Shown: positions 3,662 to 23,012 of the stretch, one piece after another
Position numbering within the stretch: the first letter of the stretch is position 1
How the letters are laid out: each line of letters opens with the position of its first letter
NCBI GenBank assembly: GCA_039679645.1
Contig: JBDKUO010000067.1
Coordinates: 28,208-92,207, forward strand
Direction of reading: 5' to 3'
DNA: 64,000 bases
Source: Armatimonadota bacterium
Lineage (GTDB): Bacteria; Armatimonadota; UBA5829
Program-made: the position numbers and the translations under genes
Notes under the pieces: generated by a model
Told to the model about the DNA's origin: nothing
Database searches by the model: none
The model's input: only the letters and a program-made list of their open reading frames with translations

Positions 3662-4000
3662 ATGATCCTTTGGAGGACGGATGTGAACAGAACAGTCTAC
3701 AAAATCCAGTTCGCTAAAAGGCTGCCTGTCGGAATGGTGGACTACCACCTTATGACGGCAGCGCTCGCGGCTGAGAGCCTTTACGGAAGAAACGCGGTGC
3801 GCCTGGACGCGGTGGCGCGGCTTAACTCGAAGAATCGCACAGTAATTATCGATGCTGAGACCCAGGTCGGAGTCGACCTCGCCAAGATGTTCATGGGCTT
3901 CATGACTAACGAGTACGGCGAGAAGAGCTTTGCCGTTACGAAGGCAGAGGAGTTTATGCGCTTTGACGACCAAGAGCTTTTAGCGAGGGTCATTCTGTGA
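3662..4000 (+). CDS. Hypothetical protein, first gene of rightward early operon
   Basis: 112-aa ORF directly downstream of motif copy 1; overlaps next gene by 4 nt. Confidence 0.4.
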   Translation: MILWRTDVNRTVYKIQFAKRLPVGMVDYHLMTAALAAESLYGRNAVRLDAVARLNSKNRTVIIDAETQVGVDLAKMFMGFMTNEYGEKSFAVTKAEEFMRFDDQELLARVIL

Positions 4001-6690: not shown

Positions 6691-8867
6691 GAGGCCGGGT
6701 CGTGGCAGTGTTCTACGCCAGCCCGACGTTTTCGGCCGGGAAACTCAAGACAGAGGCTGGTGATAAGGTGTCGTTCGCGGGTCCCGTGTTCGTTCAAGAC
6801 GGGGACCGACTCATTCTGATCGGCAGGTGGGTCAAGCACCCGAAGTTCGGTCGGCAGCTTGAAGTCGAGAGCATGGAATATGACCAGGACCTCGATGCTG
6901 AGGGGCTTGCCAACTATATAGCAAAGCACCCGGACATCAAGGGTATCGGTCCCGCGAAGGCTCGCGTCATAGCAGAGAGGTTCGGAGGTGACTTCGACCG
7001 CTGCCTTGTCGAGGAAGCAGAGCAGATAGCGCAGGCGGCCCATCTTCCGCTTGAGGCAGTCGAGCATCTGCGCGATGTCTGGCAGGAGACCGGCAAGGTA
7101 AACCAGGCAATGACCGCACTTTCGGCTTTCGGCCTCACGCATCTTCAGGTGGTAAGCCTGGTGAAGAAGTTCGGCGGCGCGGCGGTCGGGCTTTTGAAAA
7201 GCGATCCATATTCTATCGTCCGGCTTGTGCCTGGCTTCGGCTTCAAGCGGATCGACCAGATCGCCCGCGAGAAGATGAACGTGCCGAAGGAAACACCGGG
7301 ACGAATTTGTGCTGGCGTCGCATTCTGTGTGGAAGATGCGCTTGAGCAGGGGCACTGCTGGGTGGAATATGAAGAACTCATAGACCGTGCAAATACCCTG
7401 CTGGTAATGGACTGTCTGGACAGCAGGGAACGGATCGAGCACGCCCTCGAAGAGCTTATCAGCGAAAGACAGCTTACATGCTTTGGAACCAGCGGCAGGT
7501 TCCTCGTCGCCATTCCACGTATCCGGGAAATGGAAGAGTATCTTGCGCAAATACTCCGGCGTGGCGATGGTCCCAATCCAAGGTTTCCGAAACTGGCTCC
7601 TGATGCTTTGGATGCTGTCGTGCGCCAAAGTGCTCCGAGTCTTAAGCCCTGGCAGCATAACGCGGTAGCTGCGGCGCTCAGGCATTCCATCACGCTCATA
7701 TCGGGAGGCGCTGGCAGCGGCAAGACATACACCATATCCGCGCTTGTCGGTATCTGCCAGGAATATGACCTGTCCGTCATCCTTGCGGCCCCTACGGGCA
7801 AAGCGGCGAAGCGTATGGAGCAGGTTGTCGGTATGGAAGCGCAGACAATCCATAGGCTTCTCGGCTACGACGGGCATGCGTTCACGCGCGAAAGTGTCGA
7901 CGCCGATGTGGTAGTGATCGACGAGCTTTCCATGGTTGATGTGCCGCTTGCGTGGCATCTTTTCAAGGCCATAGACCTTTCCAAAACGGCTGTTGTGCTG
8001 GTGGGAGATCACAACCAACTCCCGCCCGTGGGACCGGGCAATCTGCTGCGGGACCTTGTGCGCTCACGTGTCGTGCCGACCGTCATACTTGATGGTGTTC
8101 AACGGCAGGCTGGAGTCCTTAAAGAAAACAGCATAGCGATCCTTTCGGGCGAGGTGCGAAAGACGTCAGAAAAGAAACCCGACGGCAGGCGCGCGTGGTA
8201 TGTGATAGACCAGTTCACCGACCCGATGCAGGCTCAGACATTTATCCTTGAGCTGTTCGACAAAGTTCTTTCAGAGAGGCTCAACTTCGACATCATAAAC
8301 GACGTGCAGGTGCTCACACCGACGCACAAGGGTCCGCTCGGCACCCGGGAACTGAATACTCTGCTGCAGAGTCTTGTGCAGCGTAAGCTCTGGGACCGGT
8401 ATGTGGAGCCGACGCCTCCAGGCAAGCGTCCGAAGCTTATGCCCGGCGACAAGGTCATCCAGACCCGCAACAACTACACCACAGGCGTCATGAACGGGGC
8501 TGTTGGAACGGTTGTCGATGCGGACGAGGCCGGAGGGTTGACCATCGACTTCGACGGCACGCTATTGAACTTCGAGAATGGCGCTCCTGAACTCGCCCAC
8601 ATCCAGCTTGCCTTCGCGCTCACGTTTCATAAAGCCCAAGGCTCGGAATATCCCTGCTCGATAGTGGTCGTGCATAAGTCGCACTCATTTATGCATCATC
8701 GTAACTTGCTCTACACGGGAGTCACTCGCGCCTCCGAGTCCGCCATTATCGTAGGCGACCACTGGGGGATCGGGCACTGCGCCAAGGTGAAACAGGTGGA
8801 GGAACGCAAGACATTCCTCTCGCTGCTTTTGGGTCAAACCCTGGATTCGGACAAATGGGGCAAGTAG
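6657..8867 (+). CDS. RecD2-like ATP-dependent DNA helicase (SF1) with helix-hairpin-helix region
   Basis: HhH IKGIGPAKARVIAERFGG; Walker A GGAGSGKT; Walker B VVVIDELSMVD; C-terminal SH3-like/helicase motifs QTRNNY...GDHWG. Confidence 0.85.
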   Translation: MPKPGGATTKLRGRVVAVFYASPTFSAGKLKTEAGDKVSFAGPVFVQDGDRLILIGRWVKHPKFGRQLEVESMEYDQDLDAEGLANYIAKHPDIKGIGPAKARVIAERFGGDFDRCLVEEAEQIAQAAHLPLEAVEHLRDVWQETGKVNQAMTALSAFGLTHLQVVSLVKKFGGAAVGLLKSDPYSIVRLVPGFGFKRIDQIAREKMNVPKETPGRICAGVAFCVEDALEQGHCWVEYEELIDRANTLLVMDCLDSRERIEHALEELISERQLTCFGTSGRFLVAIPRIREMEEYLAQILRRGDGPNPRFPKLAPDALDAVVRQSAPSLKPWQHNAVAAALRHSITLISGGAGSGKTYTISALVGICQEYDLSVILAAPTGKAAKRMEQVVGMEAQTIHRLLGYDGHAFTRESVDADVVVIDELSMVDVPLAWHLFKAIDLSKTAVVLVGDHNQLPPVGPGNLLRDLVRSRVVPTVILDGVQRQAGVLKENSIAILSGEVRKTSEKKPDGRRAWYVIDQFTDPMQAQTFILELFDKVLSERLNFDIINDVQVLTPTHKGPLGTRELNTLLQSLVQRKLWDRYVEPTPPGKRPKLMPGDKVIQTRNNYTTGVMNGAVGTVVDADEAGGLTIDFDGTLLNFENGAPELAHIQLAFALTFHKAQGSEYPCSIVVVHKSHSFMHHRNLLYTGVTRASESAIIVGDHWGIGHCAKVKQVEERKTFLSLLLGQTLDSDKWGK

Positions 8868-8868
8868 C

Positions 8869-11800
8869 ATGGTGGAGGCGGGATTCGACAATGTAAGAGA
8901 GTACTACCAGATCGTAACCGACATCGACATCGGGCTTGTCGCAAGGGAGCTTCTTGCCGGACGGATCACCCAGCAGTCCGAGAAGCTGCTTCAGTGCGAC
9001 TGCCCGAACCACAAGAGCCAGTCCCATCGTTCTCTGCATATACAAATCGACAAACAGTGCTGGTTCTGCTTTGGCTGTGGAATCGGCGGCGACGTGCTGC
9101 AGCTTGCCGAGTTCGTGCAGTCCGGGCGCATCACTGTGGGTGTGACCGGTCCAATGCCTGAGTCTCACCGGCAGGCGCGGGACTACCTTGCCGAAAAAGC
9201 CGGACTTCCACCGCTCGCAAACTACGGACTCTCGCCGGAAAAGATAGCCCAGACCGAGGCCGCCCGCGCGTTCGGGCTTCGTGTCCAGTCTGCGCTCACG
9301 GCTGTCGCCCGCTATTATAACGAACGTCTGAAAGCATCACCCAAGGTGCTGGAGTGGTTCACGCGGCACTATGGCATATCGCTTGAGACAATAGACTCGC
9401 TTCTCATTGGGTATTCTGACGGGACGCCATATACTGACGGCCAGGGCGGTAAGCATCCAGGAATAATATCCGCGCTCACCAGTGGTGATGACCCATTTAC
9501 ATTTCGGGAACTCGCTGCGACCGGCGCTTTCAATCCGACCAGCAATGACGATCTGGTTCCCGCATTCAATAATCGGATCACATTTCCTTACTGGAGCCGT
9601 GGGCGCGTTGTATTTATGATAGGGCGCAAGACTCCATGGACGCCGGAGAGTAATTGGGAGCAGGGCAAGTACAAGAAGCTCAAGTGCCGCGACGAACACT
9701 CCCGCAAGCACATAGCACCGTGCATCAGCAACAGCTTTCTCTACAACGAGGACTGTCTGACGGCGCGGCCGGAGCGCGTAATCATCACCGAGGGTGTGAC
9801 TGACTGTATTTCCCTGATGGAGCGCGATTTCGCCACGGTTTCTCCGGTCACTGTCCAGATAAAGGAGGACGACTGGAAACGGATACTGCCGAAACTCGCG
9901 GGAGTAAAGACGGTCTACATCTGCCAGGACAATGAAGTGTCTGAGGTCGGCCTGAAAGGATCGCTCCGCACGGCGCGTCATCTTGCTTCAGCCGGAATAG
10001 AGACTCGCTTGGTGGTCCTTCCGCTTGAAGAAAAGCACACGACGGCACGCAGCGCCCTGAAGGAGCGGTTCGGTCTGGACTCGGCTGTCGGTCCTCGCGA
10101 GCTTGCAAAGCGCCTTGCCGGGAAGCCGCCGGAGCAGGTCAAGGAAGCCGAGGGTCTGTTCGCCGATGCCAAAGTGGATGTCAATGAGTTCTTTGTCGCC
10201 GGTCATTCAGCGGAGGACTTCGAGTCCCTGCTTGCATCCGCGGTCACGCCGCTCGAATATAGCATCGATAGGATTCCATCGGGGCTACCGGAAACCGAGC
10301 GCAACCGGCTCCTTACCCCAATCCTGTGTGAAGTGGCGGATCTGCCACCACTGGATCAGTCTCGAGAACTGCGGCGAATAGTCGAACGCTGCGGCAGAGA
10401 CGGGCTGTCGATCGGGGTCCTAAAAGAACAGATGAAGGCTCTGCAAAAAGACAAGCAGGCACGGCTGCGCCAGGAGCGCAGGCAAGAGAAGCGGATAAGC
10501 ACCGCCCCAGCAGGTTCCTGCAGGGCGTGTGTTGAACAGGTTTTGCTGGATTCCGAAGCCGAAACGGGAAGCGCCGATTATTCCAAGGCTGCAGAGGCGA
10601 CGTATGATTGGTTTATGTCTCATGGCGCGCGCTTTTTCAAGACTCGTCACGGTGAACCATTCATGTTCTATGATGATGTCATGCTTTGGATGGACTCGTC
10701 CGAGCGGGCGCGCAAACGCGTGTATTCTTCTGTTATTTTCAACGCGACCGGCCTGGTGTCAGCTACCACTGGCGGGCGCATCTTCTTGGAAGTGCTTGCC
10801 AATCTTGCCGCTATTCGCGGTGAGGTTCGGGATCAGTTGTCCTGGCTGCACACCGATGTTGCCAATAACACAGTGTATTTCAACCTGAACAACGAGCGCC
10901 GCGAGATCGCTAAGATAACGCCCGATGGTGTAGAAATAATGAAGAATGGGAGTAACACTGACGGGATTATTCTGGAAGCGTCCGACAAAATCGACCCGAT
11001 AACTTTTATTCCAGATATGGACAACGACGAGGCAGACCGACTTATCATGGAATTGGTGGGCGAGAATCTCACCTGCTCGCCGTCGAACAGGTTCCTTATA
11101 CTTGCCTGGCTTTCCTGTTTCTTGCTTATCGACTTTGCAGGCACACGTCCCATGATTCGGTTCGAGGGCAGTTCGGCGTCGGGCAAGACATCGGCCGCCA
11201 AGCTTATAACTGCCCTTTTGTACGGCCAGCCGCAGCAAAAGAAGGCCACTGATGCTGCCAATTACTCTGATGCTGCACGCAACCCGTTGATTTCACTCGA
11301 TAATGTGGAGTCCAATGATGTAACGGAGGATTTCGTGAACTTCTTGCTCACTAGTATCACTGGGATTGCCAAGGAAAAACGCAAGGCAGGTTCGGATACC
11401 GAGACAGTGATAGAGCGTCCGCGCTGTCTGATAAACACGACCGGCATAGAACCGCTTGCGACCGACCTGACAGAGATTCTTTCACGCTCATTCATCCTGA
11501 AGTTCGAACTCGGAGAAGCGACAGGCAATTGTTTTCTTGAGGCCAAGGTACTCGCGAAAATCCGGCAACACAGAGACGAGATGCTTTCAGTCATAATGAA
11601 ACGCACGAGTTGGGTCTTGAGAATGCTTCAGGATGGTGGTCAGGAACGGGTAATGACATTGCTTCACCGAAACCTGGGAAACCACAGCAAACGGCGCTGC
11701 AACGACTATTTGAGCTTGATGTATCTGATGGGTATTGCCGGAATGCCGGAGGCGGACGTCAAGGTCGCGATGGAATCCATAGACTCCAGGTTTGCGGACA

Positions 11801-12204
11801 TAGTAACGTCTCTAAACGCCATAACGGAAGATGCTGCCCGGGATTCCAACCCAATCGCAACCGCACTTGTGGGCCTGTTTAAAGCATACGCAAGCGCAGT
11901 ACGGGCTGACGAGCAGTCTTACGGGTTTCCGCCGTCGCGGTCTGCGAAAACCGTGTTTCTGGAGCGCTATCAGATCGAGTTTGCCGATGAGAATTCGCTC
12001 AAGGGAGTGCTTGCCAGAGATTTGTTCATCGCCTTGAAGCGCGTTGCCAAGGAATATGGTCTTGCTTTCAATATGATCTCGGTGCAGCAGTTCGCTCAGC
12101 GGTTTGCCAACGATATGGACACGGTACGGACAGCAGGCTTTGAGATAACCGTGAATCAGCTTGCGCATAGGGTGAGGACGTATGATATTGCGCTATTGCG
12201 TTAA
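8869..12204 (+). CDS. DNA primase (CHC2 zinc finger + TOPRIM) fused to C-terminal P-loop NTPase, primase-helicase-like replication protein
   Basis: CPNHKSQSHRSLHIQIDKQCWFCFGCGIGGDVLQLAE (DnaG-type CHC2 Zn finger); TOPRIM IITEGVTDCISLMER...YICQDNEVSEVG; Walker A GSSASGKTSAAK near residue 770. Confidence 0.8.
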   Translation: MVEAGFDNVREYYQIVTDIDIGLVARELLAGRITQQSEKLLQCDCPNHKSQSHRSLHIQIDKQCWFCFGCGIGGDVLQLAEFVQSGRITVGVTGPMPESHRQARDYLAEKAGLPPLANYGLSPEKIAQTEAARAFGLRVQSALTAVARYYNERLKASPKVLEWFTRHYGISLETIDSLLIGYSDGTPYTDGQGGKHPGIISALTSGDDPFTFRELAATGAFNPTSNDDLVPAFNNRITFPYWSRGRVVFMIGRKTPWTPESNWEQGKYKKLKCRDEHSRKHIAPCISNSFLYNEDCLTARPERVIITEGVTDCISLMERDFATVSPVTVQIKEDDWKRILPKLAGVKTVYICQDNEVSEVGLKGSLRTARHLASAGIETRLVVLPLEEKHTTARSALKERFGLDSAVGPRELAKRLAGKPPEQVKEAEGLFADAKVDVNEFFVAGHSAEDFESLLASAVTPLEYSIDRIPSGLPETERNRLLTPILCEVADLPPLDQSRELRRIVERCGRDGLSIGVLKEQMKALQKDKQARLRQERRQEKRISTAPAGSCRACVEQVLLDSEAETGSADYSKAAEATYDWFMSHGARFFKTRHGEPFMFYDDVMLWMDSSERARKRVYSSVIFNATGLVSATTGGRIFLEVLANLAAIRGEVRDQLSWLHTDVANNTVYFNLNNERREIAKITPDGVEIMKNGSNTDGIILEASDKIDPITFIPDMDNDEADRLIMELVGENLTCSPSNRFLILAWLSCFLLIDFAGTRPMIRFEGSSASGKTSAAKLITALLYGQPQQKKATDAANYSDAARNPLISLDNVESNDVTEDFVNFLLTSITGIAKEKRKAGSDTETVIERPRCLINTTGIEPLATDLTEILSRSFILKFELGEATGNCFLEAKVLAKIRQHRDEMLSVIMKRTSWVLRMLQDGGQERVMTLLHRNLGNHSKRRCNDYLSLMYLMGIAGMPEADVKVAMESIDSRFADIVTSLNAITEDAARDSNPIATALVGLFKAYASAVRADEQSYGFPPSRSAKTVFLERYQIEFADENSLKGVLARDLFIALKRVAKEYGLAFNMISVQQFAQRFANDMDTVRTAGFEITVNQLAHRVRTYDIALLR

Positions 12205-12275
12205 TGTTGCTCTGGACATCCCAGGGCAGAATTGGTGCCATTCCGACCTTTTCAAATGAAAGCTCTCTTCTATAC

Positions 12276-15098
12276 CTAGAAGCGATTACGGCGGTTAAAT
12301 GTGCCTTTTACCCACGAAATGTCCTCAAGATCTTTCCAAAGCCATTCGTAGGCGATGTCGGTTGCCGGCCTAGCGCCAAAGACCTTCAATATCTCTTGAT
12401 GCGAAGAGGCACGAAGCCAGTCTATTCCAGGGCGATTCTTCTGAATACTGCCTCTTATCGCTTCGTGATTGCTAAACGGATGTGAAGGCCGAGGCCCGTA
12501 GTCAATGCAAACCTGATTGTCATCACCTTCAGGCAAAGCTTCGAAATGCCAAGATAGGACGGGAGAGCCTTCGAACCCTTTGCCAAGGCGAGGGGCGTTT
12601 AAAATCCCCACTAAGCGCATTGGCATAAGAACATAGGACTTGAGGCGACTGGAAAACATTGGAAACCATTGCTCAACGATCATCTTGTACATTTCTAGAG
12701 CTGCTGTGTACACCTGTCTAGTACGCTTCAAGAGTGCTTCCTCGCTGTAGAATTGCCAAGGATAACCAGTAATAATCTTGCTTTCAGGAATTAGGTCGGG
12801 ACCTTGCCAAGGAGCATTTATTTGAGTCTTACCTAGGCCACGCAAACGAGCAACCTCTGATTTGAGAGGTTCTATTATATGGGGAACATTCATTGAGCCC
12901 AAAACGACCATTTTGTGGCCAGAATCACGTGTCGTGCAAATCCAAGTTTCTATATCTGACAGTTCTCTTTCAATATCCGATAGCGATATGGGCTGCTCCA
13001 ACCCCTTATAGGAGGCACACAAATTGGCTGCAGTATCCCAAGCTGCTTCATATGCCATAGGGCCTATTACAACCGGCAGCTTCCTTGCCTGTAATATTTC
13101 CGCCAGTTTTTCCACAAGCTCATCGTATGTCCATCGCCACGCCCAAGTCGGCTGGTCGCTTGTGCTCGAACATGTTATTGACTGATAACCTTTGGGCATC
13201 GATTCAGAAAACAATGCTTTAGTGTCCGCCTCAAACACATACTCAGATATGTCATTGCCGCAATACCATCCAACAGTCAGCATATCGTTGTCAGTACAAA
13301 TGCCAACACGATAGACAATGCCCTTTTCATTTACAGGGGCAACCAATTTTGCCAATCCTCCCAGGCCGTTTGCCCACGCCTGCATAGCTGTTCGTATTCT
13401 CTTGCCGCACTCAATTGGCGGAGGCAGCTTGGCAGTTCTGAACCCGTCCCGTTCGGCGACCCCGTTTCGAACGATTGCTGCTGCTAAACGAGGATGTTTC
13501 TCAGCAATCGAAACGAGATAATGTGATGCGGTATCGTTGTCCGCAGACGCGGTCAATACGGTTAGAGGCGCTTGCCAATTATCTACGCTGGTGCTGTCGG
13601 ACAAATCTTCGGGTGATATCCTCCTTTGAGCGAGAGCCTGGAAAGCAAACCAGTCGTGAAACAGAGGCAATGCAAAGCCAAGCATTCCTGAATCTTCAAC
13701 GACTAGGCGAGAATCAAGCAGAGGCTGAATTTGAGTAAGGCTGCCAAACTCTGCGGCAGGTATTCGCCCGTTTCGTTTTACGCATTCACAGCCAAGCCGT
13801 GACAGAAGATGGAGCGCTTCTCCCAAATCTGCGCTAACGCCGCGTAATGCACGTTTCACTACAAAAGAAATCATTTCGCCTTCTGACTTTGGCTGCATGA
13901 TATTATTATTTCGTATGAATGTACCAAGAAGAAGGGCAAAAAGTGGAAAATGCACGGCATCTCGCACTGATTTATCGAGACCGTAAAGATTGTGTTCATG
14001 ATATTCCCAGTCAACGCATCTATTGATCAGTGCTGCGGCTTCATCATCGGTTAAAGGTGGTACGTCGACCCTGGCTTCCTCTTCCGTCAGATGTTTTAAC
14101 TCTGGGATTGTTGAACGGCTCGTCATAATGATTTGAGAGTCTGACCACATCAGGCTCATTTCTCTAGCCGCATCAATAAGTCGGATGGCAGTATCGTTGC
14201 CGCATTCGTCCAGACCATCAAGAATAAGCGAAATACCAGAGATTCCAGGTTCTCCCAGACCTCTTGAAAAATCGCGGACGGCGGCCTTAAGATCGATTGC
14301 AGCTGTTTTCAATGCAGCCTCGGTGAGATAGATTGGAATTGGGGCGTTCGGATCACTTATGGCGGCATTTACTGCAACTTGATGCAAACGTTCTGCAACT
14401 AGCGATTTTCCAGATCCAATATCACCTGTGATAATAATCCGCTTGTCTTGCATGTGTTTGTACAACCACGGGCCTGGAAGCCCAAAGCTAACATCATCAA
14501 TCCATAGCTTAGCTTGTTCTTCTGGCAATCCTGTTGCAATCAACCTTCTTACACACCGAGCATGAGATGCGCTCAGCAAATCATTTAAGGTCCTATTTCT
14601 GAGATCGATGTCAATTCCACTGCGCTTTTCGTTTTCCATATCCAAGAGTGCTTTGCAAACTGCTCTTACAAGCTCATCTGGGCTATTGAACGTTGCACGT
14701 ATTTGCTCGTTTTCCACGCGTGCTCTGAGCTGTTTTAGCTTTGCTTGCTTTTCGATGTTATTCTCCATCAGATTAGCAGGCACTAAGAAATCATTTGGAG
14801 CCAAGAACATTAGACGCGGCTTCTTCAATTCAACAGCGGTGTTGTACTCTCGTTCGGTATATGATTGTCCATTGGAAAAGCAGCTTCCATATACATGGCC
14901 AATTATTCCTACGAAGATATCGGACTCAGCTACTTTAGCCCTGCAGAATTCATCCGAATCCCGATCACGTGCATTAAATTTCTCCATGCAAATGCACTTA
15001 TAGCTGTCCAAACCATCGAAGAACTCTATGAGCTTCTTGCGGTGTTCCTGCAAGTCCTTAAATGTAGAACTCAGGAAGACAGTCGTGATTTCAGACAC
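12276..15098 (-). CDS. DUF4062 (TIR-like) - NACHT NTPase - C-terminal sensor-like domain protein; candidate STAND/NLR-like antiphage defence gene
   Basis: N-terminus VFLSSTFKDLQEHRKKLIEFF (DUF4062-like); Walker A ITGDIGSGKS; NACHT-type Walker B ILDGLDECGN; ~500-aa C-terminal region; visibly AT-richer than flanks; opposite strand to flanking phage operons. Confidence 0.6.
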   Translation of the reverse strand: MSEITTVFLSSTFKDLQEHRKKLIEFFDGLDSYKCICMEKFNARDRDSDEFCRAKVAESDIFVGIIGHVYGSCFSNGQSYTEREYNTAVELKKPRLMFLAPNDFLVPANLMENNIEKQAKLKQLRARVENEQIRATFNSPDELVRAVCKALLDMENEKRSGIDIDLRNRTLNDLLSASHARCVRRLIATGLPEEQAKLWIDDVSFGLPGPWLYKHMQDKRIIITGDIGSGKSLVAERLHQVAVNAAISDPNAPIPIYLTEAALKTAAIDLKAAVRDFSRGLGEPGISGISLILDGLDECGNDTAIRLIDAAREMSLMWSDSQIIMTSRSTIPELKHLTEEEARVDVPPLTDDEAAALINRCVDWEYHEHNLYGLDKSVRDAVHFPLFALLLGTFIRNNNIMQPKSEGEMISFVVKRALRGVSADLGEALHLLSRLGCECVKRNGRIPAAEFGSLTQIQPLLDSRLVVEDSGMLGFALPLFHDWFAFQALAQRRISPEDLSDSTSVDNWQAPLTVLTASADNDTASHYLVSIAEKHPRLAAAIVRNGVAERDGFRTAKLPPPIECGKRIRTAMQAWANGLGGLAKLVAPVNEKGIVYRVGICTDNDMLTVGWYCGNDISEYVFEADTKALFSESMPKGYQSITCSSTSDQPTWAWRWTYDELVEKLAEILQARKLPVVIGPMAYEAAWDTAANLCASYKGLEQPISLSDIERELSDIETWICTTRDSGHKMVVLGSMNVPHIIEPLKSEVARLRGLGKTQINAPWQGPDLIPESKIITGYPWQFYSEEALLKRTRQVYTAALEMYKMIVEQWFPMFSSRLKSYVLMPMRLVGILNAPRLGKGFEGSPVLSWHFEALPEGDDNQVCIDYGPRPSHPFSNHEAIRGSIQKNRPGIDWLRASSHQEILKVFGARPATDIAYEWLWKDLEDISWVKGTFNRRNRF

Positions 15099-15264
15099 AG
15101 TGGCACCTCAGCGCGTTTCAAGTCTCTGGCGCGATTATACTCCTTGTTTACGTTAATTGTAAAAGTGAGTATAAAACCAGGTGGACGAATCAGATGATTC
15201 GTGTAGTCTGGTACCGTTAGCATTGGTCTGACGGTCTGCACGAGTTTCGGACATATAACTCGAT

Positions 15265-15615
15265 GATGACCTTTCACCTGGATACGATAAGTTACGCAAG
15301 GTCCAAAACACACCTTTCACCCTCCGAATTCCAGGGATTTCACGCTCAAATCCGGTCCAAAACCGGCCGCGCGGTGAAAGGGTGAAAGGTTTCCGGCATG
15401 TCCGCCCCCATGTTTTTTCATGCATGTATATTACACGCATGTAATCCACTCACGCGCATGCGTGCGCACATGTATCATACATGCACGCGCGCGCATACAC
15501 ACGTATACATATATAACCTTTCACCCTTTCACCTTTATATAGTTATAAGATAAGAAATCAATCTCAAATAGAGTTAAATAGACCATGTGAAAGGGTCCGG
15601 TGAAAGGTCTGTTCA
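15265..15615. repeat. Repeat-rich non-coding region: GGTGAAAGG direct/inverted repeats flanking a ~110-bp alternating purine-pyrimidine tract
   Basis: GGTGAAAGGGTGAAAGG at 15373-15389; inverse copy CCTTTCACCCTTTCACCTTT at 15527-15546; half sites at 15271, 15314, 15588-15608; CA/CG/TG alternation 15410-15520 (catgcatgtatattacacgcatg...cacgcgcgcgcatacacacgtatacatatata). Confidence 0.6.
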
Positions 15616-15668
15616 AGACTCAAGAGCATTCACCCATTCACCTCCGCTGATTGATTTCCCAAGGAAAC

Positions 15669-15707
15669 CCCGACACTTTCTGGTTTCCAGGAGTACATAT
15701 CAATTGG
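15669..15707 (+). promoter_or_regulatory. Conserved phage promoter-like motif, copy 2
   Basis: ccgacactttctggtttccaggagtacatatcaattggg, 26 nt upstream of GTG start at 15733. Confidence 0.6.
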
Positions 15708-15732
15708 GGGACATTTCCAGCGGAGGTATACT

Positions 15733-16566
15733 GTGAGCTTGCTGAATTGCTTGCCGCCAGTCGAACAAGCAAGTCGACCAGAGACCATAAATGCAGACTC
15801 TACAAATTCAGTTTTCAAGGGCCGCGACGCTCCGAACCCCTTCGCACGCGACATTCTGTTTGTCGCCACCAACCTCGATTCCTGGGCGGCCGATGATATC
15901 CGGTTCGGGCATGAAGTTATGCTCGATGTCTGCTACCGCCAGTTCGACGCGTCCTATTATGCCTGGCTGCGCGACAAGATGACCCAGGTGAAACAGGCGC
16001 ATGATTCAGGCAAGATGAAGCCCGAACTCTTCCAGGGACTCCGCTATCAGTTCAACACTATCCACGAATGGGCCGTAAAGCATATTGGCGAGGAAGCTCT
16101 ACTTCAGGCTGTGCAGACCACGAGCGCGAAATCCTTTGTCCCTCCGTCCGAGCGGACATTTACCGCCTACCGAAAGGCACAAGATGATGCATGGGAGGCA
16201 CATCAGCGGCAGACAGCGCAGAGTGGTTCCTCCCAATCCGAGCAAGCTCAAAAACTGGAATACGTGCTTGCAACTCGGGGTTACGCCTGCATCAAATCTT
16301 CCATAGTTGAAGACATTGTGGTGTTCGTCCGCGACGACTCGGTAGTCGTGCCTGATAAGTGGACCGATAAAGTTCGTTTCATGATGGACGAGTTGAGCCT
16401 GATGATAGGTTCCTCGTCGGAAGCCGTTAAGCAGATTTACGAGGTCAAGCACGTGTTTGGTGGAAAAGTAGTGCCTGCGGGCGACGACCCGTTCGGAAGC
16501 GATACTCAATCGACAGTATCGGCGGCTCAGCAGACGTTATTTCCGGCTGCGGCAGGTACAAAATGA
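15733..16566 (+). CDS. Hypothetical protein (277 aa) preceding small terminase
   Basis: ORF with RBS ggagg upstream; no recognisable motifs. Confidence 0.4.
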   Translation: MSLLNCLPPVEQASRPETINADSTNSVFKGRDAPNPFARDILFVATNLDSWAADDIRFGHEVMLDVCYRQFDASYYAWLRDKMTQVKQAHDSGKMKPELFQGLRYQFNTIHEWAVKHIGEEALLQAVQTTSAKSFVPPSERTFTAYRKAQDDAWEAHQRQTAQSGSSQSEQAQKLEYVLATRGYACIKSSIVEDIVVFVRDDSVVVPDKWTDKVRFMMDELSLMIGSSSEAVKQIYEVKHVFGGKVVPAGDDPFGSDTQSTVSAAQQTLFPAAAGTK

Positions 16567-16569
16567 GGC

Positions 16570-17145
16570 TTGATGCGCCTCTCTCGCCCGACTCCGACTT
16601 GCCGTAACAACATAAGCGATAGGAACACACTGATGACTAACGACAAGCAAATCGAACAGACTGAGACTGAGGTCGGCGTCAGAGATCACGACGGAATGGA
16701 CCGTTGGAAAAGGAATGCCGAGCCTATAAATAAGGGCGGCGCTCCCGAAGGCAACACCAATGCGCTGAAGCACGGCATCTACGCGGACCGGTTCCTTACG
16801 CCGGAGGAGAAACCCATCTTCGAGGCAATCATAGCGCAGCTTTACGAGGACTTTGTGTTCAACAAAAGCTCGGACTTCATTCAAGTCGAACTGGTGGCCG
16901 TATACTTCCTTAAGCTGGGCCGCGCGCAGGAGGCTGGCGACTGGGACGCCGCCGAAAGGCTCGACCGGATGATCCGATGCCACATGAAAGACCTGAAGAC
17001 GACTAAGATCAGCCGCGAGGGAGCAGATGCTCGAGGTGACGAGACCACGCCTGCCGAATGGGCGACTGCACTCTTGGAGAAGTACGCCGAGGCCGAGAAA
17101 GCAAAAGCCGATAATCCCACTCCTGATTCGGAAGAAGCGAAATAG
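16570..17145 (+). CDS. Terminase small subunit (true start possibly ATG 16633)
   Basis: GGAPEGNTNALKHGIYA motif characteristic of a terminase small subunit family; position directly before packaging genes. Confidence 0.55.
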   Translation: MMRLSRPTPTCRNNISDRNTLMTNDKQIEQTETEVGVRDHDGMDRWKRNAEPINKGGAPEGNTNALKHGIYADRFLTPEEKPIFEAIIAQLYEDFVFNKSSDFIQVELVAVYFLKLGRAQEAGDWDAAERLDRMIRCHMKDLKTTKISREGADARGDETTPAEWATALLEKYAEAEKAKADNPTPDSEEAK

Positions 17146-17148
17146 TGA

Positions 17149-17556
17149 CTATTGCGTTGACTTGCGGCTGTTCAGGTACTGTGCGGGTGTGAGTACTAGA
17201 ACGCCGTGCACGGAGGTTCCGAAAAAAACTCCAAAGTGCTGGCAGTCGCCGGTGACGAGGTGCGAACATTGCGCGTGCAGGGCGGCAGCCAAAATGGGAG
17301 CGTCTTTGTCTGCAATGTCTATCTCATCGGGCAGCGATGATTCTGAGATGTTTATAATCGTAATTACGTTGCAGAGTTCTTCCAGGCGAAGCAGGGCGCT
17401 TGGTCTATGCGCGGCAAGGTTGCGGCGTGCTTCTTCCAGTGCCAGACGTGATGTCACTAGTTCGACTTGGTCCAGTGACCACAAGTCCGTAAGGCGTGAG
17501 TCCTGACGATATGCAGCTGAAAAAAGGACGTTGGCGTCCAGAAAGACCTTGTCCAT
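17149..17556 (-). CDS. vapC: PIN-domain toxin (VapC-like)
   Basis: MDKVFLDANVL... acidic residues D7, E42-ish, D98-ish; 135 aa; downstream of AbrB-type antitoxin gene. Confidence 0.7.
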   Translation of the reverse strand: MDKVFLDANVLFSAAYRQDSRLTDLWSLDQVELVTSRLALEEARRNLAAHRPSALLRLEELCNVITIINISESSLPDEIDIADKDAPILAAALHAQCSHLVTGDCQHFGVFFGTSVHGVLVLTPAQYLNSRKSTQ

Positions 17557-17562
17557 ACGACT

Positions 17563-17898
17563 TTACTCCGGCTTTTTGTGAGGTATGTTTTCAGGGTCAA
17601 GGCGCATTCGCTTTACCTCTTCAACAGCCGATGCATAGTCAGCCGAGTCAATCGCATTGGACAAAATGAACTCAGCGATCCTTTCAGGGGAATAGCTCTC
17701 TATGGGAAGCGCAACAGCCGGGCGTATCAGAACGCCGTCGCCGGTTTCTTCGGCAATAACTAGTGAGCCTTCGGTGATCCCGAAGCGCTTCCTCAGCTTT
17801 GCCGGAATAACAACTGTGCCACGTTTGCCGACTTTACTGGTTTCTTGAGTCTGTAGTTTGCTCATAATAACCTGCCGGAATATCAGATATTCTAACAT
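17563..17898 (-). CDS. vapB: AbrB/SpoVT/MazE-type antitoxin (VapB-like); likely start at 17865
   Basis: GTVVIPAKLRKRFGITEGSLVIAEE swapped-hairpin motif; 6 nt upstream of PIN toxin gene. Confidence 0.6.
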   Translation of the reverse strand: MLEYLIFRQVIMSKLQTQETSKVGKRGTVVIPAKLRKRFGITEGSLVIAEETGDGVLIRPAVALPIESYSPERIAEFILSNAIDSADYASAVEEVKRMRLDPENIPHKKPE

Positions 17899-18127
17899 TC
17901 AAATTATACCCCTGAACCGGGCTATTTGCAACAACAATCTTGTGAGGAAGTCTGTGAAAACGCGAAAAACAGTTCAGATAACACCGGCGCGACCCTGTAA
18001 AACCGGGTGAAATCACGCGTGAAAAACAGGGGGACTGCAGACGCAATGTCAGATAACACTCATTATCGGAACAAGCGGCGGCCGGGAAATGCCTCGGTGC
18101 TGAAGTTCTTCCCGGCACGGCGCGAGG

Positions 18128-19051
18128 TCAGAGTCGCTCTATCGCGTCTTCGAGTGGTTCGTTCGCAAGGTGAGTGTAGACTTCGGTGCTGCCGATGCAT
18201 AGGTGGCCGAGGGCTTCCTTGACCAGCCGCACATCGGAAGTAGCGGCATAGAGGTGAGTAGCGAAGGTGTGCCGCAGTCCGTGCGGCGTGACGTTCTTCT
18301 GGATTCCGGCTTTGCCGAGCCAGTAAGCAAGGCGCTGGGCGATCTGTCGGCAGCAGAGCCTCGTTCCGCGAGAGGAAACAAACAGTGCGGTGACCTCGGA
18401 GCCTGTCAGTCGGTGGCGCTCTTTGAGGTAACTGCGCAGTAGCGTCCGCAGGGACGATTTCAGGAACTTGGCCTGCGGGATGCCGCCCTTGCCTGTGATG
18501 TAGATGTGTTTGCCGTCAAGATCGACGTCGTCGATGTCGAGGCTCACAAGTTCGGCTATGCGAATTCCGGTGCCGAGGAAGAGTTCAAAGATGACCCGGT
18601 CGCGGCGTGCGAGCGGACTGGTTCGGTCGTGCAGTTCCTTAATAAGCCTGCGCTTCTCGTGTTCGGTGAGGAACTTCGGCAGCTTACGGGAGAGTCGTCT
18701 GGACGTGATCGACCTGCCCGGGTTGGATTCCACCAGGCCGCTTTCGGCAGCCCAGGTGAAGAAGGCTCGCAGCGTGGCCTTCAGCCGATACATTGTCGCA
18801 GGGGACTTCAGCGAGCCATTTTCGGAGCAGATCAGTGCGGGATCGGCGAGCGCCGTGTCCATTATCGTAGGCGTCACTTCGTATATTCCAATGCCCGGTA
18901 TGGCTCTGGCAAAGCAGTGCAGGTCGCGCAGGTAGGCGGAAACGGTAAGCTCCGAGCGACCTTGTGCCCGGAGCCTTACCGCGAAGTCATCTATTGCCTG
19001 TTCGAGACTGCTGCTAGGCTGCAGCAGCCGGATCGATGTGTTCGTCGGCAT
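18128..19051 (-). CDS. Tyrosine recombinase (XerC/D-like) located inside the packaging module
   Basis: N-terminal SAM-like LTVSAYLRDLHCFARA; catalytic R (ARRDRV), HGLRHTFATHL, terminal Tyr in GSTEVYTHL. Confidence 0.85.
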   Translation of the reverse strand: MPTNTSIRLLQPSSSLEQAIDDFAVRLRAQGRSELTVSAYLRDLHCFARAIPGIGIYEVTPTIMDTALADPALICSENGSLKSPATMYRLKATLRAFFTWAAESGLVESNPGRSITSRRLSRKLPKFLTEHEKRRLIKELHDRTSPLARRDRVIFELFLGTGIRIAELVSLDIDDVDLDGKHIYITGKGGIPQAKFLKSSLRTLLRSYLKERHRLTGSEVTALFVSSRGTRLCCRQIAQRLAYWLGKAGIQKNVTPHGLRHTFATHLYAATSDVRLVKEALGHLCIGSTEVYTHLANEPLEDAIERL

Positions 19052-19451
19052 TTGTCACCTCGTCTGTAGTCTTGAGACTGTGGCCAAGTGGGACGTCCTT
19101 TGGTAGCGGGAGCTTGCTGATGTAGCCCCGCTCCAAACACCAGGCAAGGAAAACTCGGAAGACGCGGATGGTCTTCTTGATCGTGATTTCCGAACGGTCT
19201 TTGTCGCCGTGCATTTTGAGAAGTATGTCCGACTTGAGAAAGCCGGAGACGTGGGGAATGAGGATCGAGCGGAGCTTCTTGTCAGGGCCGAAGTAAGCTT
19301 CAACCTGCTCGAAGTCCTTTCCATACGTGTAAAGGGTGCGCTCGCTCTTGCCTTGGCTCTTGAGGTATTCAACGTGTTCCTCAATGGCCTCGTGTAGTGT
19401 TTTCTGTTCCATTTCACTACCTCCAGTGGTTGTGTTGTTCACATGGATCAC
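19014..19451 (-). CDS. Integrase N-terminal (SAM-like core-binding) domain protein, separate ORF overlapping recombinase start
   Basis: 145 aa; TLYTYGKDFEQVEAYF...IRVFRVFLAWCLERGYI pattern of phage integrase N-terminal domain. Confidence 0.4.
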   Translation of the reverse strand: MIHVNNTTTGGSEMEQKTLHEAIEEHVEYLKSQGKSERTLYTYGKDFEQVEAYFGPDKKLRSILIPHVSGFLKSDILLKMHGDKDRSEITIKKTIRVFRVFLAWCLERGYISKLPLPKDVPLGHSLKTTDEVTNADEHIDPAAAA

Positions 19452-21043
19452 TCATATCGCGTTTGAAGTCAAGGGTTCTTGCCTCGAATGTGCGAGAAAA
19501 AGCGGAGGAAAAACAGTTGGTTGAGATAACGTCGGAAGAAGAAAGACTGGGAATGTCGCTGCGGGACCCGGTGCTCTGGGGTGAGAAGTACCTGCGCAAT
19601 CGGGACGGTTCCGCGCGCAGTTATTGGCCACACCAGATCGACGACCTCAAGTGCGAGGATCGGAACATCATCCACCTCGACGGCCGTGATTGCGGAAAGT
19701 CGATATCGCTTACGACTGATGCTCTGCACTTCGCCTTTACCAAACGCGGCGGCCAGGGGCTCATCGCTGCTCCCCACCAGGGACACCTCGATACGCTCAT
19801 TGAGGAGATTGAGTTTCAACTCGATTCCAACTCCGAGCTTATGAGAAGCATTGCCCTCACCAAATACGGTAAGCCGAAGATCACACGCAAGCCGTACTTC
19901 AGACTGGAGTTCACCAACGGCGCGGTCCTCTATTTCCGACCTGCCGGGGCCTACGGCGACGCCTTCAGATCATTGCACGTCGAGCGTGTCTGGGTAGACG
20001 AAGGCGCATGGCTCACCGAAAAGGCATGGAAGGCTCTCCGGCAGTGCCTCAAGGCCGGAGGACGACTGCGTATATACTCGACTCCGAACGGCCTGCGGAA
20101 CACCACCTACTACCGGCTCACGACGTCGCCGCAGTTTGAGGTATTCAGGTGGCCGTCGTGGATAAACCCGGACTGGAGTGAGGAGCGCGAACGCGAACTC
20201 CTTGAGTTCTACGGTGGACGCGACACTGCGGGCTGGCAGCACGAGGTCGCCGGTGAACACGGCAAGCCGTCCTACGGTGCGTTCAACGTCGAGCACTTGA
20301 ACCTCTGCCGACAGGAAATGCCGGAGTATTTGAAGGTCGTGATAACTGGCGAGGGCATGCGCGACTGCGTAACTGAAGAAGAATCATACGACCGCCTGGA
20401 GATGCTCCTGAACCTGATGCCGCAGACCGGCGTCTTCTGGATAGGCGGCGACCTGGGTTACACCAATGACCCGACAGAGATCGTCGTCTTTCAGGAGATA
20501 GAGGTCGGGGACCGCTCGGTCGTGAAACTCGCGCTGCGAATCCACATGGAGCACGTTTCATACCCGCACATTGCTCAGACGATCAGCCTGCTTGAGCGAT
20601 ATTTCACTCCGGTCGGGATCGGTGTGGACAATGGCGGCAACGGTCTGGCGGTCGTGCAGGAACTACTCACACTCGACAAATATAAACCTCTCCAGCTTGA
20701 AGGTCGACTGCGCGGTTACGACTTCGGCGGTATGACAACACTTGCCGTGCGCGAAGGCCAGGAGGTGAAGAAGCGTACCAAGGAGCTTATGACCAGTCTT
20801 ATTAACGGCGTGCTCCAGCGCAGGCAGCTAGTCCTGCCTGCCGACGATCTTGAGATAGAGGACCAGTTCACCACTCACACATATACTCTCTCGAACGGCA
20901 ATGTCATCTACTCCAAAGGCAACGACCACATAATCGACGCCGTGCGCTGCGCGATGCTGGTGCGGGAACAGAGAAGCCTGGACCATGTAACCGAGGAGAC
21001 GGTCTGTGTCATGCCGGTGCTTACCGACCCGATATTTTTCTGA
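19397..21043 (+). CDS. Terminase large subunit (real start probably near 19553)
   Basis: ATPase Walker A-like HLDGRDCGKS, Walker B-like VWVDEGAW; C-terminal nuclease-like acidic motifs (GIGVDNGGNG, NDHIIDAV). Confidence 0.8.
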   Translation: MFSVPFHYLQWLCCSHGSLISRLKSRVLASNVREKAEEKQLVEITSEEERLGMSLRDPVLWGEKYLRNRDGSARSYWPHQIDDLKCEDRNIIHLDGRDCGKSISLTTDALHFAFTKRGGQGLIAAPHQGHLDTLIEEIEFQLDSNSELMRSIALTKYGKPKITRKPYFRLEFTNGAVLYFRPAGAYGDAFRSLHVERVWVDEGAWLTEKAWKALRQCLKAGGRLRIYSTPNGLRNTTYYRLTTSPQFEVFRWPSWINPDWSEERERELLEFYGGRDTAGWQHEVAGEHGKPSYGAFNVEHLNLCRQEMPEYLKVVITGEGMRDCVTEEESYDRLEMLLNLMPQTGVFWIGGDLGYTNDPTEIVVFQEIEVGDRSVVKLALRIHMEHVSYPHIAQTISLLERYFTPVGIGVDNGGNGLAVVQELLTLDKYKPLQLEGRLRGYDFGGMTTLAVREGQEVKKRTKELMTSLINGVLQRRQLVLPADDLEIEDQFTTHTYTLSNGNVIYSKGNDHIIDAVRCAMLVREQRSLDHVTEETVCVMPVLTDPIFF

Positions 21044-21413
21044 GGCAGTCTATGTTTCCGGCAGCGCCGATTCCACAAGTGCAAGAAGTGTCGCAAGTGG
21101 AATACGCAGCGCCCATGCTATGACGATTATCTCGGAAAGCTCCGGGTCGTGCTTGCCATTCGAGGCACTCAAGGACAACCCTTGACACCAAAGCGCTCGC
21201 TGCATAGATCAATTGTGTTTTGATGTGTTTTATACTTATCACCTCTGCGCTTTAGTCAGGGGATTTTGTCGCTTCATTTCCCTGCAATGGTGCTCATGCC
21301 TCTTGTTGTGCTACTTATATGATTCGACAAACACCAGTATTTACGATGGGTTTGCAAGCTCGTTGCCACCCGTGCGGAAACCAGGGGTATCGTCAGGCCG
21401 TTTGCGGATTACT

Positions 21414-21454
21414 CCGACACTTCCCGGTTTTGGCGAGTACATATCAAGTAGAGG
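21414..21454 (+). promoter_or_regulatory. Conserved phage promoter-like motif, copy 3
   Basis: ccgacacttcccggttttggcgagtacatatcaagtagagg, 47 nt upstream of portal ATG 21501. Confidence 0.6.
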
Positions 21455-21500
21455 CACTCTTGTGTGCCATTACCGACTTCAAGACAGCGAGTATCCTATA

Positions 21501-23012
21501 ATGAAAAACTCCAGACGACGATCAGGGCCACGAAAAGCTGTGTCCGACCAGCCGGGCATGCGGACCGACGGTATTGTCGTTGCGCCGCTTGCGTCAGCGG
21601 CGGCACTAGACTCCTCCACGTTTGCCGGTGTGAATGCAATTGATGTCATCCCAAAGACCTGGGAAGAGCGCGCTAAGAAAGCCTGGGATTACTACGTCGA
21701 GGAGCCGCTTGTCAAAAACTGCATCAACTCCTGGCGGACGTTTGCCGTTGGAGACGAGATACGGATATCCAGCAACGACGACACCGTCAAGACCGAGGCA
21801 AACGATCTTGCCGACAAGCTCGGCATCTCTGAGTTCGTAAAAGACATGGTCCTCCAACTTCTCGTTAAAGGCGACGCAGTAGGCTTCAAGCATTACGCAA
21901 AAGATGGCAGAGACATCGAAGAGCTGACGTGCGTGAACCCGATCTCGATTAAGGTCAAATACGCTCAGTGCCAGCTAATCGAAATTCAGCAGTTTCCCGG
22001 TGATGGTCTGGCTGTAGGCGACGGCCTGAAGCTGCCCATTGAGCAGACCCTGCACCTTAAGTGGGACGCGCCGTCGTTTTCCCCTCGCGGCAACTCACTC
22101 GTGCTTCCGGCCTTCCAGTCCATCGAGTTGCTGCGTGACTACCGAAGGGCTGAACAGGCCATAGCTAAGCGCTGGGCGACACCGTTTCGCCTGCTCAAAG
22201 TCGGCGGTGCATTCGGTCAGAAGATGATAATGCCCGACCAGAAGATGCTCGAACAGACACGCGACATGGTCAACAGAATGGATATGAAAAGCGGCCTGGT
22301 CGTGCCGTTCTACATCACCGTCGAGACCCACGGTACTGAAGGCCAGGTTCTCAATGTCGAGGACAAAGTCAAGGATGTCAAGGAAGACATCGTCGTCGCT
22401 CTCGGCCTGTCGCGTTCTCTTGTGGCTGGCGACGGCCCCAACTTTGCCACGGCATCAGTCTCTATGCAGAAGATGCTCATCATGATCCGCGAGATTAAGC
22501 ATGCGGCGAAAACCATACTCGACTGGGTGTTCGACGACTGGCTGGAGATCGCGGGGCATCAGGGCAAAAGCGTCCAGTTCGTCTTCAACGACCTCGATCC
22601 GACCGATGCGGTAGACTTCAAGAAGCTCCTTATCGAGCTATACGACCGGAAACTCATAAGCCGATCAAGTCTGCAATTGAAGATGGACCTTGACCCGGAT
22701 ACCGAGACGGCAAATCGGCAGCACGAGGGTCAGTCGGTCGACTTGCTCGATGAGAAGCAGGTCAAGCCAATCGTGGACATGGTCGTGGCCGGGATAATGA
22801 GTATAGAGACCGCGCAGCAGATGCTCGGCCTCGATCCGGCGAAGAACCGACCGGATGGCCAGACAGCCGCGTCCCTCTATTCCAGCGTGGGTGTCGGCGA
22901 GATGTGCGACTCCTGTGCCTACTTTGGCGAGGATCACAACTGCTGCGGAGTCACGCAAGCCGAGACAACTTTCGATTCCCCGGCATGCCGCTTCTTCGTG
23001 CGACAAAGATGA
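21501..23012 (+). CDS. Portal protein (ORF open from 21213; start chosen at ATG 21501 after promoter motif)
   Basis: ~500 aa between TerL and MuF-like gene; C-terminal Cys cluster CDSCAYFGEDHNCCG...ACRFF. Confidence 0.65.
   Translation: MKNSRRRSGPRKAVSDQPGMRTDGIVVAPLASAAALDSSTFAGVNAIDVIPKTWEERAKKAWDYYVEEPLVKNCINSWRTFAVGDEIRISSNDDTVKTEANDLADKLGISEFVKDMVLQLLVKGDAVGFKHYAKDGRDIEELTCVNPISIKVKYAQCQLIEIQQFPGDGLAVGDGLKLPIEQTLHLKWDAPSFSPRGNSLVLPAFQSIELLRDYRRAEQAIAKRWATPFRLLKVGGAFGQKMIMPDQKMLEQTRDMVNRMDMKSGLVVPFYITVETHGTEGQVLNVEDKVKDVKEDIVVALGLSRSLVAGDGPNFATASVSMQKMLIMIREIKHAAKTILDWVFDDWLEIAGHQGKSVQFVFNDLDPTDAVDFKKLLIELYDRKLISRSSLQLKMDLDPDTETANRQHEGQSVDLLDEKQVKPIVDMVVAGIMSIETAQQMLGLDPAKNRPDGQTAASLYSSVGVGEMCDSCAYFGEDHNCCGVTQAETTFDSPACRFFVRQR

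Follow-up and report, generated by a model that had tools for sequence, protein, structure and literature searches.

In a 64,000-nucleotide stretch of DNA labelled as originating from an Armatimonadota bacterium (GenBank assembly GCA_039679645.1, contig JBDKUO010000067.1, positions 28,208 to 92,207), hereafter termed the window, we have analyzed a gap of 634 nt at positions 15099-15732 that separates a DUF4062-NACHT gene from p277, a gene for a protein of 277 residues with no assigned function. The window is a tailed prophage, and the gap contains an array of short repeats, or iterons, that extends over 15270-15642. We consider it likely that this array is an origin of replication of the kind served by the Rep proteins of Staphylococcus aureus pathogenicity islands (SaPIs) and by the alpha protein of phage P4, with a predicted DNA unwinding element in an AT-rich spacer on its right side. 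The proposed initiator is a primase-helicase of 1111 residues that is encoded upstream of the NACHT gene. A replication origin was among several functions suggested in a first-pass annotation of the same DNA, and it is the one that gains support from comparative evidence, namely from the conservation of the array in related phages and from the covariation of its repeat unit with the C-terminus of the initiator.

Architecture and conservation of the iteron array

The exact sequence GGTGAAAGG is found eight times in the window against an expectation of 0.44, and none out of 100 shuffled sequences reached this number. Seven of the eight copies are confined to 338 nt (15270-15607), with the remaining one located at 32928. 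Together with two near-copies, TGTGAAAGG at 15586 on the plus strand and a second one at 15634 on the minus strand, the region comprises approximately ten iterons with an 8-bp unit, GGTGAAAG. Four of the exact copies are arranged as two dimers that constitute a perfect 19-nt inverted repeat (15373-15391 and 15515-15533) with 123 nt between its arms. To the right of the leftward dimer follows the AT-rich spacer, with an AT content of 79% the least stable duplex of the region, and the iterons at its borders, the leftward dimer on one side and a rightward pair on the other, point away from it. The first-pass annotation had described iteron-like repeats in inverted arrangement, and both the label and the arrangement are borne out. 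Its coordinates for the right arm (15527-15546) were some 10-13 nt too far to the right, while the others were right to within 1-2 nt. It had also taken the gap for non-coding and doubted the open reading frames (ORFs) predicted inside it, and rightly so, as these ORFs show no protein-level conservation in relatives.

Such relatives were retrieved from viral contigs, metagenomes and metagenome-assembled genomes (MAGs) with a 17-mer dimer pattern and a gapped two-dimer pattern. The small terminase led to 64 loci in which this architecture is built from other units; peptide patterns from p277 were too poorly conserved and yielded none. In about 100 related phage and prophage loci the layout between the primase-helicase gene and the packaging operon is retained, and some 38 loci with the repeat unit of the window (type A) share both the array architecture and the gene order. 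This conserved order is exonuclease, Sak4, SSB, ERCC4 nuclease, RecD helicase, primase, array, p277 and small terminase.

Within the array the distances are nearly fixed, with 100-127 nt for the spacer between the dimers and 36-55 nt for the AT-rich spacer, and the rightward iteron pair is 12-13 nt apart in most of the relatives that have kept it. Iterons in the left flank are present in most relatives, in varying number and orientation. The position of the rightward dimer is constant in all type-A loci, and no block of the array is better conserved across the family than the leftward dimer (the equivalent of 15517-15533). As a counterpart to the degenerate dimer at 15627-15642, nearly all relatives have a leftward iteron or dimer at an equivalent distance (+72 to +101). 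The sequence of the central spacer shows little conservation; its length is kept, and its orientation is the same in 38 of 38 loci. The equivalent of the AT-rich spacer has an AT content of 55-86% in all 23 relatives examined, compared to locus means of 33-50%, and in every relative examined the AT-richest segment is flanked by oppositely pointing iterons.

In most relatives, such as L005, L009, L010, L016 and L027, the array lies directly 3' of the primase stop codon, and the NACHT gene is absent from these five loci and from others. Because the array directly follows the primase gene in most of the family, this comparison of gene orders identifies the NACHT gene as an accessory insertion between the putative initiator gene and the putative origin. 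In locus L063 its slot is occupied by a toxin-antitoxin-like pair (590-1215 of that locus, minus strand; recognized from ORF translations only), and other inserts of approximately 1.4-1.9 kb are located at the same place in L082, L028 and L040. The interval from the proposed initiator gene to the array is a preferred site of insertion for accessory genes.

Not all matches to the search patterns belong to the family. Ten loci (L011-L013, L018, L019, L023, L035, L045, L046 and L052) were treated as unrelated, with no family gene detected by tblastn. They contain long inverted (GGGTGAAA)n arrays of up to about 23 units that face their complement and have the look of hairpin-forming microsatellites; the one among them that was read, L011, has its array (1078-1243) between convergent genes. 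Five more loci with a single dimer (L001, L003, L004, L006 and L007) are probably chance matches. A megablast search of phage GenBank records with positions 12000-20000 gave no match, a tblastn search with the helicase part of the initiator matched no deposited phage genome, and no paper containing the iteron dimers was found in the searchable literature.

Covariation of repeat type and proposed initiator

Sister lineages have the same architecture with other repeat units. Besides type A, GGTGAAAG, these are type B, TGCGGTGGT, type C, GGTGTATGT, type D, GTAGAAAG[G/T], type E, GCCGAAAG, and type F, GGTGAGTYT; in types C and F the repeats are located inside the 3' end of the ORF of the replication gene. 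The closest pair of different types is formed by L062 (E) and L082 (D), which are approximately 90% identical over the whole intergenic region. All of their about 12 units differ by the same two bases, CC in type E and TA in type D, apart from a few hybrid units. A change shared by all copies is what one would expect of sites that are read by one co-evolving protein.

A comparison of type-E and type-B genomes delimits the exchanged segment. The two are 96.5% identical over approximately 8 kb upstream and 94.5-94.9% identical over approximately 6 kb downstream, 14.8 kb in total, and the alignment is interrupted by a single unalignable block of about 1.05 kb. It contains about 110 codons from the end of the primase-helicase gene, the whole array and the beginning of p277; between L062 (E) and L063 (B), DNA identity returns at about codon 58 of the latter gene. 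Over the near-identical genomes with different units, the primase part of the exchanged cassette amounts to approximately 110-240 codons. In two sub-families the primase-helicase is replaced altogether, by a protein of 894 residues with an NrS-1 polymerase HBD domain in L119 and by a Toprim-like protein of 834 residues in L120. In both cases the repeats differ once more and are located at the 3' end of the ORF of the replacement gene.

In order to assess which protein tracks the repeats, a repeat type was assigned to each locus and every conserved protein was compared within and between types. Exonuclease, Sak4, SSB, ERCC4 nuclease, RecD helicase, small terminase, large terminase and portal protein reach 98-100% identity across repeat types. 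Between L062 (E) and L063 or L057 (both B), the small terminases agree at 99% of 185 residues, types B and D have large terminases with 99% identity, and for a tyrosine recombinase of 307 residues encoded nearby the identity between loci with different repeat units is 97-98%. As they are near-identical between loci whose repeats differ, these proteins cannot, judging from the alignments, set the specificity of the array and are excluded as its presumed binder. Only two proteins stay below this level, the primase with a between-type maximum of 94% and p277 with one of 88%. The N-terminus of p277 is of low complexity and lacks conservation even between type-A loci, which all share GGTGAAAGG, and because it varies where the motif is invariant, it is excluded, again on sequence grounds, as a plausible reader of the repeats.

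In the primase the divergence is confined to the end of the chain. The proteins of L130 (E) and L151 (B) do not differ at all until about residue 870, after which identity drops to 73, 63, 66, 53 and 48% and finally to approximately 30% at the C-terminus. For the last 81 residues the minimum identity within a type is 56% (A), 87% (B), 78% (D) and 99% (E), and the between-type maxima are 40-54%, except for the recent D-E pair at 90%. N-terminal segments, with between-type identities of up to 100%, do not separate the repeat types. Type-specific residues are found in a predicted helix, with the sequence SVQQFAQRF in type A, SSRQFAQRL in types D and E and KPAQLGRRI in type B. The tip of a beta-hairpin consistently reads KRY in type D and NHR in type E, in parallel with TA and CC in the respective iterons. 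A count of alignment columns that fully discriminate D from E in all proteins was discarded as too noisy, the three type-E loci being closely related. The correlation as a whole suggests that iteron sequence is matched to a specificity determinant in the C-terminus of the initiator.

The proposed initiator and the alternatives

The domain order of the primase-helicase is that of a DnaG-type primase, a predicted self-loading P-loop helicase and a C-terminal winged-helix-like domain. Residues 1-390 match the CHC2 zinc ribbon and Toprim domains of DnaG-type primases in Pfam. An AlphaFold2 (AF2) model of residues 640-1111, with a pLDDT of 84 and a pTM of 0.78, comprises a P-loop ATPase core followed by a helical domain and, at its end, a helix-helix-helix-beta-hairpin element. 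In a Foldseek search of the PDB the best match was Cch from the staphylococcal cassette chromosome mec (SCCmec; 5dgk) with an E-value of 3.5e-7 and a query-normalised TM-score of 0.52 over 519 aligned columns, followed, to E-values of about 1e-4, by the helicase region of NrS-1, PriRep1 with double-stranded DNA, the SaPI5 primase-helicase, MCM and vaccinia D5. An invariant GxxxSGKT sequence resembles the Walker A motif. The C-terminal half of the protein thus models as a self-loading initiator helicase with an ATPase of the hexameric-helicase type. Modelled alone, the C-terminal 112 residues reached a pLDDT of 91.6 with the same helix-helix-helix-beta-hairpin topology, and it is on this topology that we describe the domain as winged-helix-like.

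The helicase and recognition parts behave as a module, as in one homologue, P0042, the C-terminal 470 residues are joined to another type of primase at the N-terminus, a PriCT_1 module. A more distant homologue with 30% identity is encoded on a plasmid of Desulfocapsa sulfexigens (NC_020305.1). Directly 3' of this gene, eight copies of GGTGCARG are found within 313 nt, together with an AT-rich tract, where 0.8 copies are expected in 13.4 kb; the array region (7480-8051) is followed by a tyrosine recombinase gene. The annotation of the plasmid lists a replication initiation protein as well, separate from this homologue, so that two replicons may be present.

The description of known replicons fits these features and is the reason for reading the array as an origin with a self-loading initiator. 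SaPI Rep combines helicase and initiator in one protein whose C-terminal winged helix recognizes short iterons, and the SaPI origin has 6-12 iterons directly downstream of rep with an AT-rich center and at least two oppositely oriented iterons per side; in SaPI5 a primase is fused to Rep (PMC9371898). The alpha protein of P4 combines a DnaG-type primase, a helicase and a C-terminal winged-helix origin-binding domain in a single polypeptide (PMC2777425). The array resembles the SaPI case in its iterons downstream of the initiator gene, its AT-rich region and its oppositely oriented iterons, and in structure the initiator is best matched by a group of proteins that includes SaPI5 PriRep and PriRep1. 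It differs in that no sequence homology is detectable, a PDB sequence search having matched the zinc ribbon only, in its units of 8-9 bp rather than 5-6 nt, and in its inverted dimers around a spacer of 100-127 nt with a separate AT-rich core and further iterons. Moreover, SaPIs are satellites, whereas the prophage with the array is tailed and of full size, and its hosts are uncultivated and not Firmicutes.

With P4 alpha the initiator shares the order of domains in one polypeptide, but alpha has 777 residues and a superfamily 3 helicase, no sequence match to 1ka8 was obtained, and P4 has two separated iteron clusters, ori and crr, rather than one compound array. The type I iterons of P4 are the octamer TGTTCACC, and TTCACC is common to this octamer and the complement of the present unit; a literature search for this octamer returned unrelated primer matches only. 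SCCmec Cch, the best match to the whole model, lacks a fused primase and has a sequence identity of 14%, and no mention of an iteron origin for it was found in the literature consulted. Iteron plasmids with RepA, pi or TrfA initiators and the lambda O/ori-lambda system likewise have repeated initiator sites beside an AT-rich unwinding element, and their specificity co-evolves with the initiator. These initiators, however, are not helicases and need loading of host DnaB, whereas the present one carries both primase and helicase. Ori-lambda lies inside gene O, and the repeats of types C and F inside the 3' end of the replication ORF are reminiscent of this arrangement.

By analogy to these systems we infer that binding, melting and the start of replication all take place at the array. 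The C-terminal winged-helix-like domain of the primase-helicase would bind the iterons, and initiator molecules on oppositely oriented sites would assemble as hexameric self-loading helicases, as for SaPI Rep or PriRep and P4 alpha. They would melt adjacent DNA, most likely the AT-rich spacer and possibly also the easily deformed central spacer, which may serve as a second loading or melting zone, and would then prime synthesis with their own DnaG-type domain. In a more specific version of this model the inverted dimers, 100-127 nt apart, would seat two hexamers head-to-head over the spacer in an MCM-like double hexamer, an alternating purine-pyrimidine tract of approximately 100 nt, into which this spacer would have evolved in the lineage of the window, would act as a supercoil-driven melting element (Z-DNA or easily kinked) in place of an AT-rich one, and, separately, the switch between types D and E would make a wing-to-base recognition code readable; we regard this version as speculative and rather doubtful.

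Several observations weigh against the assignment as an origin. The covariation analysis covered approximately 10 kb on each side of the array in genomes of about 55-65 kb, so that a binder encoded farther away is conceivable, and type E is represented by three loci that are close relatives of each other. The winged-helix folds that head the Foldseek list for the C-terminal domain (DnaD-N, IRF, PadR and Orc1/Cdc6 on origin DNA) are not significant matches, with a best E-value of 0.13. The architecture is more elaborate than that of a simple two-sided SaPI origin, and the central spacer of the window is 53% AT and thus not AT-rich, which makes the melting site uncertain. In the window, the origin is 2.9 kb away from the stop codon of the initiator gene owing to the NACHT insertion. 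Cumulative GC skew has a local minimum at about 16 kb, but this is confounded by gene orientation.

Four other explanations were weighed. The position of the array immediately upstream of an operon with the small and large terminase genes, and the presence of repeats on both sides of a central segment as in P1 pac, might indicate a cos or pac packaging site with binding sites for the small terminase. Lambda cosB contains R-sites, and hexamer repeats flank the cleavage region of P1 pac. Both terminases nevertheless remain 99% identical where the repeat units differ, although a terminase that recognizes the repeats should vary with them. The repeats follow the upstream replication gene and not the downstream packaging genes, and the starts of related contigs are scattered without a pile-up in the array, assembled contigs being a weak proxy for termini. 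A packaging site is accordingly quite improbable. The array might also be an operator or enhancer for a regulator of the packaging-operon promoter or of the divergent NACHT gene, as it is located between divergent transcription units and ends some 28 nt upstream of a promoter-like motif; binding of the initiator might have a side effect on this adjacent promoter. The NACHT gene, whose promoter lies outside the repeats, is however missing from most of the relatives with the array, and among the proteins compared no regulator covaries with repeat type, only the primase C-terminus does. In addition, 10-12 sites over approximately 370 bp with an AT-rich core are more in line with an origin than with an operator. 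We consider such a function unlikely, and neither the repressor operator array nor the control region for the defence gene that the first-pass annotation had offered is supported, the NACHT gene being an evident insertion with a promoter of its own.

The perfect 19-nt inverted repeats around 123 nt, with a tyrosine recombinase gene conserved nearby across the family, could be taken for an invertible switch in which this recombinase flips the central segment. No inverted copies of the segment were found in the 38 loci, however, and the recombinase hardly varies across repeat units. Each arm consists of two 8-bp units in direct repeat and lacks the internal dyad and spacer that we would expect at the core site of a tyrosine recombinase, and the unit also recurs beyond the inverted repeats. 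This makes inversion hardly credible. The remaining explanation holds that the array is primarily a structural switch prone to forming Z-DNA or cruciforms, with incidental repeats, and it draws on the alternating tract, which the first-pass annotation had noted and which is real and extreme. The fraction of alternating steps is 0.90 over 100 steps from 15417, about 8 standard deviations above the mean of 0.50 (standard deviation 0.05) in the window, where the next best segment reaches 0.67. The longest unbroken runs are 40 nt (15476-15515, containing GCGCGCGC) and 25 nt (15451-15475), with a maximum of 16 nt elsewhere in the window. But the tract is specific to the sub-lineage of the window and not a defining feature of the array: over the best 60 nt, the alternation amounts to 0.98 in the window, 0.88 in L020 and L025, 0.78 in L021 and 0.71 in L002, and only 0.41-0.63 in other sub-families that have the full repeat architecture. 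As the function of a family-wide element, a Z-DNA-prone switch is very improbable and finds no support. An Rfam scan of the whole window gave nothing at gathering threshold, and sub-threshold matches to mir-297 and mir-466 at 15438-15511 were dismissed as artefacts of CA/TG composition.

The assignment as an origin would give a function to a conspicuous non-coding region and provide a predicted origin with its cognate initiator for a large family of uncultivated temperate phages. It would also define a natural experiment in the evolution of specificity, with at least four iteron types on one conserved architecture, a cassette of approximately 1 kb with origin and recognition domain that is exchanged between genomes nearly identical in all other parts, and a recent change of two bases in the iterons that is tied to three residues of the wing. 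Recognition of iterons by the initiator, and possibly replicon incompatibility of co-infecting relatives, are thereby open to direct testing. The kind of mechanism is already known; what goes beyond routine annotation is the series of specificity types, the exchanged cassette and the two-base switch between types D and E.

Genomic setting

The features of the gap and of the surrounding genes are collected in Table 1.

Table 1. Features of the iteron array and its surroundings, in positions of the window.
Feature	Position	Strand	Remarks
Exonuclease	3997-5016	+	
Sak4-like annealing protein	5016-5750	+	
SSB	5747-6220	+	
ERCC4-type nuclease	6220-6690	+	
RecD-like helicase	6657-8867	+	
Primase-helicase, 1111 residues	8869-12204	+	Proposed replication initiator; Pfam and PHROGs matches
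Predicted specificity region	11566-12204	+	Residues ~900-1111
Winged-helix-like domain	11959-12201	+	Residues ~1031-1111; wing tip ~1098-1100
DUF4062-NACHT gene	12276-15098	-	Pfam
Gap under study, 634 nt	15099-15732		Between NACHT gene and p277
Sigma-70-like promoter of NACHT gene	15134-15163	-	TTTACA-18-TATAAT, 11/12 matches; outside iteron array
Positions of exact GGTGAAAGG	15270, 15313, 15373, 15381, 15517, 15525, 15599	-, -, +, +, -, -, +	
Two left-flank iterons, CCTTTCACC	15270-15278 and 15313-15321	-	
Iteron dimer, GGTGAAAGGGTGAAAGG	15373-15389	+	8-bp period; left arm of inverted repeat
Central spacer, 127 nt	15390-15516		Between rightward and leftward dimers
Alternating tract	15417-15516		Inside central spacer
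Iteron dimer, CCTTTCACCCTTTCACC	15517-15533	-	Right arm of inverted repeat
AT-rich spacer, 52 nt	15534-15585		Predicted DNA unwinding element
Two iterons, 13 nt apart	15586-15607	+	TGTGAAAGG at 15586, GGTGAAAGG at 15599
Degenerate iteron dimer	15627-15642	-	CATTCACC twice; GGTGAATG on minus strand
Promoter-like 30-mer, CCGACAC-N17-TACATA	15670-15699	+	"Motif copy 2" of the first-pass annotation
Other copies of the 30-nt motif	3412-3441, 3572-3601, 21414-21443	-, +, +	
p277, 277 residues	15733-16566	+	Function unassigned
First ~58 codons of p277	15733-15907	+	Right edge of swapped cassette; linker-like, poorly conserved
Small-terminase-like gene	16570-17145	+	
Tyrosine recombinase, 307 residues	18128-19051	-	Antisense
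Large terminase	19397-21043	+	
Portal gene	21213-23012	+	

The promoter-like motif between the array and p277 is one of four copies of CCGACAC-N17-TAnnTA in the window, where 0.05 are expected. Three of them end in TACATA and the one at 3412-3441 in TAAATA, and two copies are arranged divergently ahead of the replication operon. The motif is kept upstream of the p277 homologue in relatives and probably drives the packaging operon, separately from the origin. A phage-encoded sigma factor (2139-2726, minus strand) may be the protein that reads it. A perfect 10-nt inverted repeat, ACCTCCGCTG at 15640-15649 and CAGCGGAGGT at 15718-15727, was considered as an RNA switch, as the GGAGG ribosome-binding site of the gene starting at 15733 falls within its right arm and might be occluded in a hairpin. 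The left arm is however located upstream of the predicted promoter and would hence be absent from the transcript, and this option was rejected.

Host assignments of the relatives rest on MAG labels. Contigs bearing the array are labelled as Planctomycetota, Verrucomicrobiota, Acidobacteriota, Armatimonadota, Gemmatimonadota and Hydrogenedentota (L010-L025), and the flanking genes, as far as they were captured, are closely related; in the three MAG loci that include the large terminase this protein is 68-88% identical to that of the window. The differing labels mean that either these phages infect a very wide range of hosts or their contigs have been binned unreliably.

Past the portal gene and before the downstream late genes, the window encodes a DNA methyltransferase-like protein of 1277 residues (24939-28772, plus strand; phrog_27806, 1285 bits). 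The recombinase of 307 residues between the small and large terminase genes is Xer-like and lacks an arm-binding domain; its position is constant across the whole phage family, with identities of 50-87%, and it may act in dimer resolution or circularisation. Six further tyrosine recombinase genes cluster at 50267-59672 and probably mark the end of the prophage and other mobile elements. Three of these are consecutive and overlapping (54020-55357, 55354-56319 and 56316-57323) and resemble a recombinase-in-trio element.

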